IMG/VR virus record: IMGVR_UViG_2537562173_000011
Coordinates: 1 to 28,423 of that record
Strand: one strand, 5' to 3'
Source: a virus
Lineage: Duplodnaviria > Heunggongvirae > Uroviricota > Caudoviricetes
Length of the DNA: 28,423 nucleotides
The notes under the pieces are model-generated. The model was not told where the DNA came from. It ran no database searches and saw only the letters and a program-made list of their open reading frames with translations. Below, one piece after another: positions 1,398 to 8,788 of the stretch (its first letter is position 1; every line of letters begins with the position of its first letter). The translations under genes and the position numbers were made by a program.

Positions 1398-2153
1398 TTA
1401 TTGCGTGAGCTTCGCATGATAGCTGGAGCATCTCTTGTCATCACTAATTAGCTCCGCTTTATCCGTTCTTGCCCATATTATATTTCTTTTTATTATTTTT
1501 GCTGGATTACCGGCTGCTGCACACATAGATGGCACATCTTTAGTTACAATACTCCCATACCCAATGACAGATCCGCTTCCAACAGATACTCCTTTCATTA
1601 TAGAGACATTTCTCCCTACCCATACGTAACTAGATATAATGATATCTTTTGCCCAATTAATCCTTTTTTTGCTATGAATATCAAATATAGGATGCCCATC
1701 TGATGCACGCAAAATAACATCTCTTGCTATCATGCAGTCATGGCCAATTGTAACATTGCACTTATCAGTGACGACTTCAAAACCTGCACCTATTGTCGTT
1801 CTTCTACCGATAATAACTTTTGAACCTTTTGTTGCGACAATATCACCTTTAATCTTACTGTTTTTATGTATTCTTACGTAATTATTATCACCCCTAAATA
1901 TTACGGTAAGCCATCGACACTCAACATCATCTTCTATAATAAGTTTGTTATTGTTTCCATTGAACTGAACTTTATTCTCTTTGCTATTTACAAGATCTCC
2001 ACATACAAAAACATTACCTGACCCATTATCATCAACGGAAAACGAGTCTTGAGTCTTGAGTCTTGAGACTTGAGTCTTGAGGCTTGAGTCTTGAGTCTTG
2101 AGTCTTGAGACTTGAGTCTTGAGGCTTGAGTCTTGAGTCTTGAGTCTTAACAT
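1398..2153 (-). CDS. neuO: Polysialic acid (K1 capsule) O-acetyltransferase, hexapeptide-repeat family, phase-variable
   Basis: 251-aa ORF starting at ATG 2153. N-terminus is built from RLKTQDS-type heptads encoded by AAGACTC repeats; the rest has left-handed beta-helix acetyltransferase character (IGAGFEVV, VGSGSVIGYGSIV). AT-rich, sits between int and tailspike as in CUS-3. Confidence 0.85.
   Translation of the reverse strand: MLRLKTQDSSLKTQVSRLKTQDSSLKTQVSRLKTQDSFSVDDNGSGNVFVCGDLVNSKENKVQFNGNNNKLIIEDDVECRWLTVIFRGDNNYVRIHKNSKIKGDIVATKGSKVIIGRRTTIGAGFEVVTDKCNVTIGHDCMIARDVILRASDGHPIFDIHSKKRINWAKDIIISSYVWVGRNVSIMKGVSVGSGSVIGYGSIVTKDVPSMCAAAGNPAKIIKRNIIWARTDKAELISDDKRCSSYHAKLTQ
2044..2148 (-). 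repeat. Heptanucleotide VNTR, 15 tandem units (coding strand 5'-AAGACTC-3') at the 5' end of neuO
   Basis: Counted directly: 15 contiguous 7-bp units, 11 perfect AAGACTC plus 2 AAGCCTC and 2 AAGTCTC, arranged as a 42-bp super-unit. 15 is a multiple of 3, so the ORF reads through in frame (ON state). Confidence 0.95.
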
Positions 2154-2306
2154 ATTAGTATCCTACGTTATTTTACCACTAGTTACTTTTCTTGTCATTA
2201 AAAAGCATTTAAATTTTTATATTTAATTTCGTTGACGTCAATGTTTTTTGCCAATGTACTTACTTCTTTATGTGATCAGTTCATATTTTTGACGCCAACG
2301 AAACAT

Positions 2307-5252
2307 TTAGTGCTTCCCTTCTATTAAGTCTAACCTAGCTTTTATTCTTTCTATTTCTCTGCGCTGCCATGCTGCCTCGATATAGAATAAGAGATCAGGT
2401 CTGACCCCCCATCTAGATCCTGCTGGCGTTATTTCAACGCGCTCAATGATGTCTTCCATTACCATCACTGGATTATCATCCTCATCAACAATGATGCTCC
2501 CGTCATTATCAGTCAGCGGCATTTCCCTTTGGCCAGTAATGACGTCATCATATACTGCGGGATAATCGTCATAGCAAAGAAAGGCATAGCGGCATGTTGT
2601 GCTTTCTTCTTCCATGAGTCCGTGAGAAATAAGAACATCACGAAGTTGCTGCGCGATTACACCATGATGTATCCTCGCCCCTTCTTCCCCCTTTATAGCG
2701 ACAGCGTTCAGCCATTTATAAGCGATATACCTGACGTCACCCCAGGCATCCAGCAATGTTTCGTCAGGAGAGACCGGCTCTGTCTTTAATGTTCCGTCAC
2801 TGGTAACCACAGGATTGGAGCCAAGATAAACTATCGAGAACCTGTTTCCCGGACCACCAAGAGCATTTACATTATCAAGATAAGGTTTAACATCTCCGTT
2901 CTCAAAAAGATGTTCGAGTGCGTTATATACCGCGCGACGTGGAGTACTGCTTCTGGAACCATGCAACGTTATCATTGCACCATCTGCTGAAGACGTTGTT
3001 TCACCGCCGCTAACGATTAATCTCTGAGCGGTAACATCATCAGACGGTACTTTCTTCGCAATAATGGCGTAATTACCCTCAAGTTTGACTTCCGCGCGAA
3101 CTTGTCCTGATGTACCTGCATGGACAGTCAGTGACTGGACGGCAACATCATCTGTGAAATCAACGGGTACAGGAACCGTCCTCACGCCTGACGTCGACAT
3201 AAAAGTAGGAAGCGTTCTGTTAGGAGTGGCTCCGTAGACAAAATCCCTTGAAACAAATTCTTCCTGTTTAATTTTCACCCTGAAACAATACAAATCAGCC
3301 GGGTGACCATCGTGAACATAAGGATATTTTCTGTTGTTATCCCCTATGCTCCATGGGTTTAGAAAGTCTTCCCCACCGAAAATGTAGTACAGCCAGTTGT
3401 CTTTGATACAAACTGAACCAACACCAACCGCAGAGTTAACTATTCCGCCCTGATAAATCTGATCAGTAACATTAACCCACTCTACATTATCCAGACTCCA
3501 CTCATTGACGTTAACTCTGGTCATAAATGTTCTTGGATAGTTTCCTGCATAACGGTTATCAGGTTCTCCTCCTTCCCACTCACCAAATGCGCGCTCACTG
3601 CCAAAAATAATCAGCTCATCGCCAACTTTGGCAAAAGGAAGGTTTGAGTGATGAACATTATTTGGGAAGCGAAGAGAATTCCATGATGTACCTAAATCAG
3701 AGCTTCTGTGCAATGAACTACCGGGTTGAGTACTTAATGTCCCCCTGGTCGTCAGATACAGAATGCCATCATAATATTTTACACATGGCTCAGATGCATT
3801 CGCCTCATATTCTGCAGGTATGCGTCTGCGAACAAAGCTACCAGGAGAACCGAAAGCATCAGAGAAATAGAGTATCCCAAGCTCGCGTGGACCAATATCA
3901 CCATTATGGTAGCCAACAGCAAAACTGTTATCGCTAATCGTCGCAAAACTGTGAATCTCAGTAACAGGAGTGCTTCCGTCAACAAAAGAAGGAATAGTTC
4001 CAAGACTGGTTTTTCTCCATGGTGACGAGTGAAATGATGTACCAAAACTCCAGTATCTACCCTCGTTATTCTGATCCACATCCTGGGTATTTTGCGTCGT
4101 AACTGTAAAAGTATTTTTATCAATAACAGTAGTCACCGTCATATTCCCGGTAACACCTGTAACACCAGAGTTTGAGAAGTTGACAAAATCACCAGCAAAT
4201 AATCCGTGATCAGTAATGCGAATATAAGCGACTTGCTGATTTGCTGCTTTCGTTATACCACCATAAACGCGAAGGCTGCGACTCATTGGGCGATCCCACA
4301 ACTCTGCAACCTGCAGTTTATTTCCGCTCACGGTCCGCGTCTCAATTACAGCAAAAAGGCGATTTCTGACAACCCCCATACTCATGCAGTGATAGTTAAC
4401 TGTGGGATAGTTTTCATGTAAATCTGTAAGCCATTCCGGCGTTGTCCAGGTCTTCCCGTCATCTCCTGAGCGAACCCATGCAACATGGAGGTTATTTACA
4501 CCATGGCGGTCCCCAGCCATAAAAGGCGCATAGATGACATTGTCATATACAAACGTTTTATCCTGCGTCCAGGCGTTGTACCACGGTGTATCTGTAATTT
4601 TAAATAACTCTCCCTGGATAAAATCTTCAGAAACATAAAAAAGAGGCTGACCCGGTATTCTCTCAAATAAAAAACGAGCATTTTTAAATCGACTGACATC
4701 TGGAAGAGTTGATACTTTAAAAGTAAGCCCTCGCCCATCTATCTTTTCACCACCTGTTGCAACAGAAAGTAATTCTGATAGAGCTGATGTATCATCATGA
4801 ACACCATCACCAATAGCCCCCCAACCTCTTACATCATAACTGTCTCTCCATCTTGCTATCTGAAGTTTTGGGTATTTATTCGCTCCATCTGGGTCTTCTA
4901 ATTGCTGCCGTAGTTGATCAGGATCATACTTCAGCACATTCTGGAAATAGAACTGCTGTACGCCATACGCATCGTACACAGCCATAGAATGGCCTTGCAC
5001 AGTTACGAACTTGGCAATCCGTCCGTTATATACAGGGTAACCAGCAGCGTTAATGATGATTGGTTGCGAAACAGGAACGTGAGAGCCGTCTTCGTTCTCT
5101 ACATAAACCTGAATCCGGTTTTCAGGATTTACCGGGTCAGTGTCAATTTTACCGATATAAATTTTGCCATTGGCTACGGCTTTAAAAGAACGCGCCATAG
5201 TGAAGAGTTGCGAAGGCATCGATACAATCACATTGGCTGTAATGTCTGTCAT
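2307..5252 (-). CDS. Tailspike with P22 gp9-like head-binding N-terminus fused to an endo-N-acetylneuraminidase (endosialidase)
   Basis: 981 aa. N-terminus MTDITANV...[13 protein letters not shown]...VLKYDPDQ is near-identical in pattern to the P22 tailspike head-binding domain; the remainder is consistent with K1-phage endosialidase tailspikes. Position next to ant matches P22 gene 9. Confidence 0.85.
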
Positions 5253-5308
5253 TTAATTTGCTCCAGATGCAAAGAATCGCCGCAGCATGGCCACGGTGAA
5301 TTTTGGGC

Positions 5309-5334
5309 ATAAAAAAACCCAGCCGAAGCTGGGT
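5309..5334 (-). terminator. Rho-independent terminator between ant and tailspike
   Basis: On the minus strand: hairpin cccagc-ttcg-gctggg followed by a T7 run, located between the ant stop (5353) and the tailspike start (5252). Confidence 0.55.
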
Positions 5335-5352
5335 CGTTGCGTTGGTTATCTG

Positions 5353-6255
5353 TCAGTAATTATGTACTGAAGGAGGTAATTCTTTATTCTTAAGTCTCAT
5401 CCATGCGGAAAGATTCGTTGGTCCGTCTGGCTCATTGATATCAACATCTCGTGTGTGATTGATTAAAACGTCTCTCGCCATATCGATAATACGGGAGAAC
5501 TCATAACCGCAGTCATGACATCTGCCGGAATAGTTCGATTGAATTTGTTTTAGCGCCGGATACAGTTCGCGGAATAATGCCTGTGAGCGGTTGGCATAAT
5601 CCCATAGCCATACAAGGCTGTTTGCTTCTTTTGCAGAAAGCTCGTTGGTTTTCTTCTCTTGTTTGCCGATGAACTCACCTTCAAGCACTACCCTGTGGAT
5701 GTACTCTACTGCTTGTGGTATCTGAGATGCATCAAGCTCTTCAATACTTTCCACATTGAAACGCTGATGAATCATTGCATAAGCTTCTGGGTACATTAGA
5801 TGCTTTTTGCTGACTAGCATATTTACAGCATCACGAAGCGGAGTCCTGTCATCAACAGATGTTTTCTTCCGTGCATTTGCTGCCTCTCCCTTTGTCCAGT
5901 AGTCATGCAGCACAGTAAAGCATTCTTCCTGGTACTGAATCAGTTTATCGCGGATGTCAGCACGAACTTTCTCAGGGTTGATGCTGAACAGCCATCCATT
6001 TAACTTCTTCAAAGGAAGGCAGAGTAGCTTACGAAGCTTACCATCAGCGGCAACCATGTTCATATGAACACAGTTGAATTTGCTAATCTGCTTCATGAGT
6101 TTTGTTTGCTGCGTTGACCAGCTCATTCCGAGGTTTTCAACGATTGGCTTCATCGCAACATATGCAACTCCGGCAGCCATGGCGGTGATAATTTGCTGAC
6201 CGTTGAATGGCACGTAAGAGGTGTTCACTGCTTCTAAAATTGCTATACTATTCAT
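5353..6255 (-). CDS. ant: Antirepressor Ant (immI)
   Basis: Position immediately upstream of the tailspike and downstream of arc, as in P22 immI. I chose ATG 6255 ([10 protein letters not shown]...); the track's longer ORF begins at a GTG at 6321 just after an in-frame stop. Confidence 0.75.
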
Positions 6256-6487
6256 GTTGGTTTTTCTCCACGGATTTACCGACAACCGAAGCCCTGACTG
6301 TTCCAGCAGTTGGGGCTTCACTGTTTTGATTTCTTTGCCGCATCAAGCATCACTTCTGAAAACGTGCGCTTGCCACTGAATACTCTTTCTCTTCTCAATT
6401 TTTCGTTCGTGCCAAATGATTCGCCATGAACAAAATTTGGTCTTAAAATGGTAATCGCAATCTCTTTGACTACTGCATCCAAGCGAA

Positions 6488-6640
6488 TCACACCGTTACC
6501 CCCTCTCTCTTCAGGCTGTCTATCAGGCGCTTGATAACCTCTGAGTTAAACGACCTGCACTCTTCCTTTGCCCTGCTACCGATAGCATCCTTTAACGACT
6601 GCGGCATCCTTACCAAAATCTTACTTATTTCTTTCTCCAT
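6488..6640 (-). CDS. arc: Arc-like ribbon-helix-helix repressor
   Basis: 51 aa from ATG 6640 with a GGAGGG Shine-Dalgarno. Sequence ...RMPQSLKDAIGSRAKEECRSFNSEVIKRLIDSL resembles P22 Arc (GRSVNSEI motif region). Divergent from mnt. Confidence 0.7.
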   Translation of the reverse strand: MEKEISKILVRMPQSLKDAIGSRAKEECRSFNSEVIKRLIDSLKREGVTV

Positions 6641-6754
6641 GTTACCCTCCACGCAAACAACTCTTTTCGAATACAAAAGATAGCAAAGTGAGTATATCTA
6701 GTCAAAATTTTTTTGCATACACTTTGCTATCAAATTGAATACCAAAGGTGTTAT
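6641..6754. promoter_or_regulatory. Divergent immI promoter/operator region between arc and mnt
   Basis: 114-bp AT-rich spacer between divergent RHH repressor genes; contains 12-bp inverted repeats gatagcaaagtg (6679-6690) and cactttgctatc (6720-6731). Confidence 0.4.
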
Positions 6755-7003
6755 ATGGCAAAGGGTGTGTCAATTTCTCCAACTACGGTAAGAATCCCTG
6801 AATCTTTACGCGAGGCTCTTGCTGTCAGAGCATCAAAAAATGGTCGCTCTGTTAACTCCGAGATCGTCATGATTTTGCAAGCCGCGATTGATGAAGATAG
6901 GTCGCCAAAGTCAGTTGAGTCATTTGCTCAGCAAGAAGCTGATAAATTCAAAGAGGCGCTACTTGAGACGCTAAAGACCATGTATGCTAAGGATGAAAAA
7001 TAA
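6755..7003 (+). CDS. mnt: Mnt-like ribbon-helix-helix maintenance repressor
   Basis: 82 aa from ATG 6755 (SD AAGGTG). ...RIPESLREALAVRASKNGRSVNSEIVMILQAA... resembles P22 Mnt; length and divergent orientation relative to arc match P22. Confidence 0.75.
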   Translation: MAKGVSISPTTVRIPESLREALAVRASKNGRSVNSEIVMILQAAIDEDRSPKSVESFAQQEADKFKEALLETLKTMYAKDEK

Positions 7004-7539
7004 TGCTGCACACAATTCATTTCTTATGCCCTGTTAACACTGCCACTGTTGGGCAACTTCAGAACCACTGTCTCACCGCATTATCTCAAGGCGCAACTGA
7101 ATTAAATATCCATATATCAAGTCAGGGAGGGGAAACTGCTGCTGGCTTTACTGCGTATAACTTTCTTAAGTCACTCCCTGTTACCGTTAGAACTCACAAC
7201 ATAAGCAATGTTGAATCCATAGCTAATATCGTTTTCCTGGCTGGCTCAGAACGTTTCGCAAACCCATTATCAAGATTCCTGTTACATCCTCTATTATGGT
7301 GCTTTGCCTCCCCAGCCGCCGACCATGCCAGATTGAGAGAGTACGGGAAATGCCTCGATAACGATCTTGATCGCTTCGTTGAGACGTTCAATATCGACAT
7401 CGGAACCCATATTAGGTGGGCATCCCTGATAGCAGACTCGACCATTTTGGATGCTAACAAGGCTCTTGAGCATGGCATAATTAATTCCATAAAAACTGCA
7501 AGGCTGGCATCCAATCAGGCAAACTGGTGGGTTGTTTGA
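7003..7539 (+). CDS. ClpP-fold (S14-like) serine protease homolog, 178 aa, translationally coupled to mnt
   Basis: Start ATG overlaps the mnt stop (TAATG). HISSQGGETAAGFTAYNFL...ISNVESIANIVFLAGSERF...SRFLLHPLL aligns by eye to the ClpP core (INSPGGVITAG...GQAASMGAFLLTAG...RVMIHQP), with Ser, His and Asp at the catalytic-triad positions. Confidence 0.6.
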   Translation: MLHTIHFLCPVNTATVGQLQNHCLTALSQGATELNIHISSQGGETAAGFTAYNFLKSLPVTVRTHNISNVESIANIVFLAGSERFANPLSRFLLHPLLWCFASPAADHARLREYGKCLDNDLDRFVETFNIDIGTHIRWASLIADSTILDANKALEHGIINSIKTARLASNQANWWVV

Positions 7540-7566
7540 TGGGTAAATCATGATTACTCCTTATAA

Positions 7567-7589
7567 AAAACCCACCTGACGGTGGGTTT
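7567..7589. terminator. Bidirectional rho-independent terminator between convergent hotspot genes
   Basis: aaaaaa-cccacc-tgac-ggtggg-ttt hairpin flanked by A and T runs, between the stop at 7539 (+) and the stop at 7588 (-). Confidence 0.5.
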
Positions 7590-8004
7590 AGTCAAACATA
7601 GTGTTTCTAAAGTCTCTCGCATACCCTGCTAACACTCTCATTCTATTATGATTGTTAGCAGACATGTGAGCTACAGGATGAAAAAGAGCAATCAATGAAT
7701 GCCTGTTCTCATCAAAAAGATTTTGTGCATAAACGAGAGCGGTATTGGATGTTTTATGCCACTGCAACTTTTGCGGTGTGCTGATATCTGTGCCATTTTT
7801 TATTGGCTCAAATTTATTTTCACCAATTGCTAAATGAAGGTGCATAAGGCCTGCATCTTCAATATCAGGAGGTCGATGATAAGAGGTGTCTCTGCCAAAA
7901 TAGCTGGGCAACGTTCCCGTAGACTTGTAGATGATTTTATCATCTACAAGTGTTTGTTTTAAATCAGGAAACTCAACAAAAACCGGGGAGAAAAAAATAG
8001 TCAA
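7588..8004 (-). CDS. Hypothetical protein (138 aa if the TTG start is used), second gene of a two-gene hotspot operon
   Basis: Open frame with AGGA 5 nt upstream of a TTG at 8004; first in-frame ATG would give about 85 aa. No family recognised. AT-rich. Confidence 0.4.
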   Translation of the reverse strand: MTIFFSPVFVEFPDLKQTLVDDKIIYKSTGTLPSYFGRDTSYHRPPDIEDAGLMHLHLAIGENKFEPIKNGTDISTPQKLQWHKTSNTALVYAQNLFDENRHSLIALFHPVAHMSANNHNRMRVLAGYARDFRNTMFD

Positions 8005-8046
8005 AACTATCCTGATTATATTCCACGGTTACTTGCATGTTTTACC

Positions 8047-8613
8047 TCAGTGGAAGTTACCAGAGTGAAACACACGAGTCCCGTGCTCAGCAAGCGCACG
8101 CAAACCAGCCATATCTACGGAACTATCAAAAACAACCGGAACACATGAGCGTTGTTTAATAAGACTATTCAGGTTGGTTACGGCAGATCTGGCATCAGCA
8201 ACAACGATATAGATATCTCTTGCGATCTCTTTAAAATCAGCAGAAGCTTCTTTGAATACCGATTTCATTGCCCCTTCAAGTCCTCTCAATTGATGCTCTA
8301 TCAATCGAGACTTTTCTGGTTCAATGATAGACAACACATTGTCTACATTCTCATCGGTAGCGTTTGCAAGAACACGATAAGCGTATTTCAGCATTCGAGA
8401 CAATTCTTTAATCGAAGACACCGCCTCATGAAGCTCATCATTAGCCCGTTCACTGCTGAATGAGGATTGATGGTAAGCGTGCTGAACGTTATCAGTAACA
8501 ACCACCTCACAACTGAACGCAGAAGCTTGCTGTAATAGCAAACCTATTGCGACTCCAGCTTTGGCAGCGTTCAAGCTAAACATTTCATCAATCCCATTAG
8601 TCTCATTGCTCAT
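8047..8613 (-). CDS. Hypothetical protein (188 aa), first gene of a two-gene hotspot operon
   Basis: ATG at 8613 preceded by a perfect AAGGAGG Shine-Dalgarno; predicted largely helical; no family recognised. Confidence 0.5.
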   Translation of the reverse strand: MSNETNGIDEMFSLNAAKAGVAIGLLLQQASAFSCEVVVTDNVQHAYHQSSFSSERANDELHEAVSSIKELSRMLKYAYRVLANATDENVDNVLSIIEPEKSRLIEHQLRGLEGAMKSVFKEASADFKEIARDIYIVVADARSAVTNLNSLIKQRSCVPVVFDSSVDMAGLRALAEHGTRVFHSGNFH

Positions 8614-8788
8614 ACAAACCTCCTTCTTATCGGAGATTATCAATAGCTATGCATCCATTGAATACACGCTATGCGCAATAAGTTTACGTCACGTGATATC
8701 ATTATGCAACCACCGTTCTATCACCGACTAACTTTACTCCCACTCCTATACATCATCTGGTATCCTGCGCAAAACTAAGGAGGTTGGT

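Follow-up and report, generated by a model that had tools for sequence, protein, structure and literature searches.

A prophage-borne YafO-family toxin gene, frameshifted in the copy examined, and its conserved helical partner form a probable toxin-antitoxin cassette

The DNA analysed here comprises positions 1 to 28,423 of the IMG/VR virus record IMGVR_UViG_2537562173_000011 (28,423 nt; below called the window, to which all coordinates refer) and represents the right arm of a P22-like (CUS-3-type) Escherichia coli prophage. Its genes are arranged in the order integrase, acyltransferase, tailspike, ant, arc and mnt, the gene pair described in this work, the ejection genes 16, 20 and 7, and the head genes. 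The pair is located on the minus strand, between the ejection gene for gp16 (8995-10836) and the immI genes. Its upstream gene (8047-8613) encodes a protein of 188 amino acids (aa), which we call the partner. This gene starts with the ATG at 8613 and is preceded by the Shine-Dalgarno (SD) sequence AAGGAGG at 8619-8625, which was read directly from the sequence. The downstream gene (7588-8038), with its ancestral start codon ATG at 8038 and the stop codon TAA at 7588-7590, belongs to the YafO toxin family and is disrupted. The CUS-3-type prophage of strain S88 is 99.85% identical to the window over positions 2044-8793, and the partner gene, which is intact in the window, is 100% identical to the S88 copy. 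A sequence-only reading of the window, made without database searches, had placed the start codon of the 188-aa gene at this position, with a perfect AAGGAGG, and had described an operon of two unknown proteins. This description holds for the upstream gene but not for the downstream one, which matches PF13957 and is annotated as YafO in RefSeq.

By its sequence, the downstream protein is a member of the YafO family, in a clade distinct from YafO of E. coli K-12. It matches the Pfam profile PF13957 (YafO_toxin) with 75.4 bits (gathering score 25) over profile positions 3-101 of 101, and phrog_1651 at 1e-47. Its identity to K-12 YafO is 38% over 120 aa, and the NCBIfam YafO equivalog PRK09885 is matched with 71 bits, under the cutoff of 153. 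The S88 copy is already named 'type II toxin-antitoxin system YafO family toxin' by the Prokaryotic Genome Annotation Pipeline of RefSeq. Of the residues which are invariant in nine diverse YafO proteins including that of K-12 (e.g. D33, F34, Y37, G48, H66, E110 and H124), H66, E110, H124 and most others are kept in the window, and F34 is replaced by K. In the AlphaFold2 (AF2) model of the intact toxin, which is confident with a predicted local distance difference test (pLDDT) score of 85.7, the secondary structure elements follow a beta-alpha-alpha-beta4-alpha layout.

YafO is among the least understood toxins of the RelE superfamily, and its dependence on the ribosome is disputed. To our knowledge, no YafO structure has been solved, and the known biology of this protein comes almost wholly from the K-12 yafNO pair. 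YafO was assigned to the BECR-fold (RelE/ParE) superfamily (PMC11980606), and the activity to be expected is mRNA cleavage with arrest of translation (PMC11980606, PMC8546651). From this knowledge of the family, we infer that the prophage toxin would be an mRNA endoribonuclease that blocks translation.

In intact copies, such as those of S88 and ExPEC XM, the toxin gene is 450 nt long and encodes 149 aa. Its start codon, the ATG corresponding to 8038 with GAGG at 8045-8048, lies 8 nt past the stop codon of the partner gene. In the window, a homopolymer at toxin codon 16 (7991-7997, minus strand) consists of seven T residues, while six are present in S88, ExPEC XM and all nine close copies from IMG/VR. 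Of the 55 complete E. coli genomes carrying the locus, not one has the T7 run, and 54 harbor the intact pair of 1025 nt, strain SF-088 being the exception. The extra T splits the toxin gene into a 21-codon stub and an out-of-frame open reading frame (ORF) of 138 aa with a TTG start codon (7588-8004). This ORF had been taken for a gene of its own, starting at TTG 8004 and separated from the 188-aa gene by 40 bp. It does exist, but it is the remainder of the frameshifted gene, and the real spacing is 8 nt.

The frameshift is not the only change in this gene. A perfect 13-bp palindrome inside the toxin ORF (7923-7951) has a 3-nt loop (7936-7938) which reads AAA on the coding strand in the window and TTT in the other close copies examined. 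The change resembles an inversion of the hairpin loop caused by template switching, and it results in the F34K exchange mentioned above. In addition, a private missense mutation at 7701 (minus strand) leads to Y112H and affects a residue that is nearly invariant in the clade. Altogether, the window and S88 differ by eight events in 6750 bp, three of which fall into the 451-bp toxin gene (binomial p = 0.013) and none into the partner gene. Between positions 4513 and 8793, the three events in the toxin gene are the sole differences. Since the toxin gene is disrupted as sequenced, this copy is probably not a working module. It probably consists of an orphan antitoxin and a toxin pseudogene, or at best of a mutated toxin that is restarted at TTG 8004 and lacks its N-terminal part; according to the AF2 model, such a restart would remove beta1 and half of alpha1.

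Disrupted toxin genes were also found elsewhere. SF-088 carries a separate 1-nt deletion near toxin codon 18, in a C/G-rich stretch, and in the P0041 lineage (at least nine contigs) the toxin is truncated after K80 by a frameshift at an A-run. In both cases the partner gene is intact. Thus, three independent frameshifts in the toxin gene (window, SF-088 and P0041 lineage) stand against no disrupted partner gene.

One explanation for the T7 run is an error of sequencing or assembly, in which case the source organism would have a fully functional cassette and a normal toxin of 149 aa. Single-base changes in homopolymer length are the commonest type of sequencing error, and a 52-nt piece of zwf in the gp10 gene (see below) points to a possible assembly chimera elsewhere in the window. 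However, no other indel occurs in the 6750 bp that the window shares with S88, and of 11 homopolymers of at least six bases just this one is affected; an error is thus possible, though it is not the interpretation we prefer. Furthermore, two more private changes, both at conserved residues, are located in the same 451-bp gene, and toxin frameshifts arose independently in other genomes. Taken together, we consider it unlikely that the toxin gene is intact in the source organism.

As the frameshift lies in a homopolymer close to the start of the gene, the T-run could also be taken for a phase-variable or programmed-frameshift switch tuning the toxin output, and the frameshifts in the P0041 lineage (A-run) and in SF-088 (C/G-rich stretch) were at short runs, too. 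Yet the length of the T-run did not change in the 55 complete genomes and nine IMG/VR contigs, SF-088 having a different 1-nt deletion nearby. A run of 6-7 nt is short for phase variation, the context of a slippery heptamer or a stimulatory structure was not seen, and the added missense changes suggest decay over switching. A switch is highly improbable on these grounds.

The relation between the two genes is strict. In every locus examined (approximately 40, including near-identical copies), the partner gene is directly followed, at -4 to +16 nt, by a PF13957 gene encoding 136-150 aa. Among database members of the partner family down to E = 2e-4, a YafO gene follows at -4 to +13 nt in seven of seven cases. 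The pair was also detected in all four species-representative genomes (Serratia, Acerihabitans, Buttiauxella and a metagenome-assembled genome of the Enterobacterales) that were recovered in a scan of species genomes with a narrow partner alignment. It is present in the phages HK639, YMC11/02/R656 and PhiR40_1 and, weakly, in pJN2-26, in 22 of 22 IMG/VR contigs, and in one chromosomal locus outside of phages. The insertion sites vary and comprise the P22 gp16/mnt slot, lambda-like tail regions, sites beside an integrase gene and the chromosomal site. Since the insertion contexts differ, the pair moves as a unit. The co-occurrence across genomes, proposed as a check by the sequence-only reading, thus turned out clearly positive: both genes are found in every locus, over deep divergence and in differing prophage contexts. 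In line with this, the distance matrices of partner and toxin are congruent (Mantel r = 0.88, p <= 1e-4), with the partner evolving faster than the toxin (mean distance 0.73 vs 0.55).

That reading had also named remote-homology and structure searches. Profile searches assigned the toxin to the YafO family and left the partner without a match beyond phrog_8416, a family of unknown function. No match to the 188-aa protein was obtained in Pfam, NCBIfam, PADLOC or the Protein Data Bank (PDB), and it falls outside the known antitoxin families. Homology to YafN was ruled out (BLASTP E = 36, hhalign probability 0.5%). The partner family is rare, with six clusters at 90% identity in 5.8 billion proteins and, by profile search, 23 representatives among 1.84 billion proteins. 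Its best-conserved part are the C-terminal 50 residues, with the pattern ARSA..LN.L..Q....F.S..D..GL..LA.HGT.....FH, which in the enterobacterial clade ends in an invariant His. The AF2 model of the partner is a helical bundle (pLDDT 73), in which the linker 36-53 and the C-terminus are poorly defined in isolation.

In the sequence-only reading, the 188-aa protein looked helical and soluble. The AF2 model agrees with the first property, while a conserved hydrophobic N-terminus resembling a signal peptide speaks against the second. Approximately 23 of 26 members of the partner family have an uncharged hydrophobic run of 15-27 aa at the N-terminus, and in distant members a basic n-region and cleavage motifs of the ALA, ASA or AMA type resemble a Sec signal peptide. 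The start of most members corresponds to Met11 in the protein of the window. Members of the enterobacterial clade share an invariant GLL(L/M)QQ within the hydrophobic segment, where AF2 builds a moderately confident helix. A lipoprotein (AFSC motif) was ruled out, because neither the cysteine nor the -1 residue is conserved across the family alignments, and a true transmembrane helix is unlikely with 19-residue hydropathy values which are mostly 1.0-1.6, below transmembrane values.

These features raise the possibility that the 188-aa protein is exported or targeted to the membrane and has a role of its own, for example in superinfection exclusion similar to that by SieA, and that it is merely cotranscribed with yafO or controls the toxin indirectly. 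Besides the N-terminal run and the cleavage motifs of distant members, the lack of a detectable DNA-binding domain is compatible with such a role, and the cassette occupies the slot of SieA, the inner-membrane exclusion protein of P22 (PMC10883804). On the other hand, the partner is paired one-to-one with the toxin in all contexts with the 8-nt coupling, and the cassette contains no other candidate antidote. The partner is kept while the toxin erodes. Moreover, the invariant GLL(L/M)QQ and the modelled helix in the enterobacterial clade are atypical of a signal peptide, and the hydropathy is mostly under transmembrane values. Homology to SieA was not detected with any profile library, a direct sequence comparison with SieA not having been made. 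We regard a separate role of the partner at the membrane as quite unlikely.

Instead, we propose that the two genes probably constitute a type II-like toxin-antitoxin (TA) cassette, composed of a YafO-family toxin and a helical antitoxin of a hitherto unrecognised family, in which the toxin is broken in the window and the partner is intact. The genes show the layout of type II TA systems: they are adjacent and co-oriented, the partner gene comes first, and the gap in intact copies is 8 nt. While the toxin family was already known, the partner would, judging from its sequence, represent a new antitoxin family. A TA, abortive-infection or exclusion module had been guessed in the sequence-only reading on the basis of gene architecture, and the YafO-family toxin and the strict pairing of the genes now support the first of these. 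The best indirect evidence for a protective partner is the asymmetry of erosion: the toxin erodes while the partner stays intact, as predicted by a relation between toxin and antidote. In this respect the erosion of the toxin alone can be viewed as a natural experiment, which supports a costly toxin and a protective partner.

The following mechanism, drawn from the knowledge on type II TA systems and YafO (PMC2814082, PMC8546651, PMC11980606), is proposed. The partner would be made first, with translational coupling to the toxin gene located 8 nt downstream, and would most likely act as a dedicated antitoxin, neutralising the toxin by direct binding. The conserved 50 residues at its C-terminus are the candidate toxin-binding region. 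Upon loss of the partner, YafO would be set free, cleave mRNA and stop translation. The cassette would be expressed from the lysogen and may serve as an addiction module, an abortive-infection module or both.

Several points weigh against this interpretation. Congruent trees also arise from gene linkage alone, and the T7 run may stem from an error in sequencing the homopolymer, as discussed above. The conserved N-terminus resembling a signal peptide is not what one would expect of an antidote to a cytoplasmic RNase, and, unlike in most type II antitoxins, no DNA-binding domain was recognisable in the partner. PADLOC gave no defence-system match for either protein; in PADLOC-DB v2 the toxin had no match, and the partner had just a coiled-coil-like match of 14 bits to the C-terminus of ZorA (E = 0.004). 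A Foldseek search with the toxin model against the PDB gave no significant match (none at E < 0.04), and a sequence search of the PDB with the toxin gave none, either. The best TM-scores in Foldseek, at E = 0.5-1, were to the RelE-superfamily toxins HigB2 (5mje_A, 0.53) and YoeB (6l8e_E, 0.57). Since these are not significant, the assignment of the toxin to the BECR fold (RelE/ParE) is based mainly on Pfam and the literature.

With respect to the N-terminus, it is possible to imagine that the segment resembling a signal peptide controls the availability of the antitoxin in the cytoplasm by export, membrane targeting or capture by Sec or a chaperone, and that proteolysis is not the controlling step. 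This idea is a long shot. If it were true, the release of YafO would be tied to how the inner membrane or the secretion machinery is faring, and the cassette in the SieA slot would allow a prophage to fire an RNase once a superinfecting phage disturbs the membrane or halts synthesis in the host. In toxin-antitoxin-chaperone (TAC) systems, how the antitoxin behaves depends on its recognition by a chaperone. For the unexplained N-terminus the HigBA-SecB TAC systems (PMC11980606) serve as an analogy only. In contrast to them, the cassette has no chaperone gene, and its hydrophobic segment is N-terminal; no homology to them was found, and no test aimed at it was made.

The cassette is self-contained: it comprises two genes in approximately 1.2 kb and has its own conserved upstream region and terminator. 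Among the P22-like versions the 180 bp upstream of the partner gene are conserved. The GGAGG of the SD sequence is kept in all four aligned P22-like loci and the full AAGGAGG in three of them. Further upstream, TTGCAT and TAAACT, separated by a 17-nt spacer (8681-8709, minus strand), form a candidate cassette promoter, which is proposed from conservation: the blocks TTGC and GTA.ACTTATT do not vary among four prophage versions with a divergence of 55-65% at the protein level. A scan for consensus promoters upstream of the partner gene called none, and the candidate matches the consensus at 7 of 12 positions.

At the other end, a plausible intrinsic terminator hairpin (7565-7589) is common to the cassette and to the convergent mnt-protease operon. 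The hairpin (7568-7589) has a 9-bp stem and a GTCA loop and is followed by a U-run to 7565 (free energy -15.9 kcal/mol, z -2.75). The same 42 bp are an annotated terminator in phage Emek, and the hairpin noted in the sequence-only reading was confirmed. Searches against Rfam gave sub-threshold terminator-like matches only, such as the terminator end of sroH with 19.5 bits at a gathering score of 80.

Comparison to known systems shows what is shared and what is particular to the prophage cassette. The yafN-yafO genes of K-12, located in the dinB operon, have the PF13957 toxin (38% identity over 120 aa) and the order antitoxin-toxin in common with it, and the gap between the genes is 2 nt in K-12 and 8 nt here. 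However, K-12 YafN is a Phd/YefM-type protein of 97 aa, whereas the partner is a helical bundle of 188 aa without similarity to it, and the K-12 YafO of 132 aa contrasts with the toxin of 149 aa, which has an N-terminal extension and an insertion. Further, yafNO belongs to the SOS-regulated dinB operon, while the cassette is borne by a prophage and its toxin gene is frameshifted in the window.

P22-like prophages have a variable slot, bordered by gene 16 on one side and by the immI/tailspike genes on the other, for accessory genes expressed from the lysogen; in P22 and many relatives it harbors one such gene, sieA (PMC10883804). The cassette occupies the same slot as this moron, and a prophage hotspot had indeed been suspected at this site. 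SieA is one multi-pass protein of the inner membrane and blocks the injection of DNA, whereas the cassette consists of two genes, one of them for an RNase toxin. Closer relatives are genes 17 and 18 of phage HK639, which are the same two-gene cassette (partner 38% and toxin 60% identical), and the Pseudomonas phages YMC11/02/R656 and D14L contain distant members of both families. The cassettes of HK639 and of the Pseudomonas phages are not in the P22 slot but among tail genes or at genome ends.

In the literature, Leplae et al. reported that YafO toxins have either Phd or unclassified proteins as partners, and found none of these toxins on phages (PMC3141249). In a survey of E. coli, 8% of the YafO partner clusters corresponded to known antitoxins (PMC10790755), and YafO toxins of Pseudomonas prophages were tabulated without a cognate antitoxin (PMC10449497). 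As these toxins are listed without an antitoxin, the partner has gone unrecognised in Pseudomonas prophages. We did not find an experimental study of the prophage pair; a study of yafNO in avian pathogenic E. coli concerns the canonical locus.

A distant partner member in PhiR40_1 (PV340560.1, 222-761) was deposited as 'YafM antitoxin', without evidence, and a paper on Pectobacterium also names a 'YafO/YafM' TA system. The yafM gene of K-12 is an unrelated transposase gene associated with repetitive extragenic palindromic (REP) elements. The label 'YafM antitoxin' is probably a pipeline artefact.

The significance of these observations differs between the family and the window. Phage and prophage YafO toxins have a conserved helical partner of approximately 180-190 aa that is overlooked by the current TA and defence finders, and adding the partner family to such tools would complete many annotations of solitary toxins. 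The cassette is also a candidate prophage addiction or defence module in the sieA slot. The contribution of the window itself is more modest: its downstream gene was already in RefSeq, and its copy is probably dead.

The convergent neighbour of the pair, also noted in the sequence-only reading, consists of genes for an Arc/Mnt-like repressor and a ClpP-like protease (6713-7539, plus strand). The protease gene (178 aa) adjoins the Arc/Mnt-like gene at 7003; its product matches Pfam CLP_protease with 44 bits and remains under the cutoffs of NCBIfam. One would not expect a protease in the immI region. The 3' end of its gene together with the terminator (7400-7539) has matches in 256 E. coli genomes and in the phages EC.P3, phiv205-1 and E212. 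An obligate third component of the cassette in the form of this ClpP-like protein was ruled out, since other P22-like prophages have the YafO pair without the protease gene.

Divergent from the cassette, a hydrophobic ORF of 62 aa (8789-8977, plus strand) corresponds to phrog_21338. Its SD sequence and the region just upstream are kept across prophages, but the gene body is replaced by unrelated ORFs of 107-297 aa, which places the mosaic junction at approximately 8793, at the start of this ORF.

Two further irregularities were observed outside of the cassette. The gp10 gene for packaged-DNA stabilisation (approximately 14100-15501, minus strand) is split into the ORFs 14100-15230 and 15277-15501. 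Here, about 95 nt are replaced by a patch 17 nt shorter (15279-15356), whose first 52 nt (15279-15330) show 98% identity to chromosomal zwf, present in 5420 of 5426 E. coli genomes. The patch is either the scar of an illegitimate recombination in a defective prophage or an assembly chimera. Finally, four of the five differences from S88 outside of the toxin gene are clustered within 57 nt (2068-2124), close to the 5' end of the gene for the acyltransferase (1398-2153, minus strand), and this stretch may be hypervariable or phase-variable.

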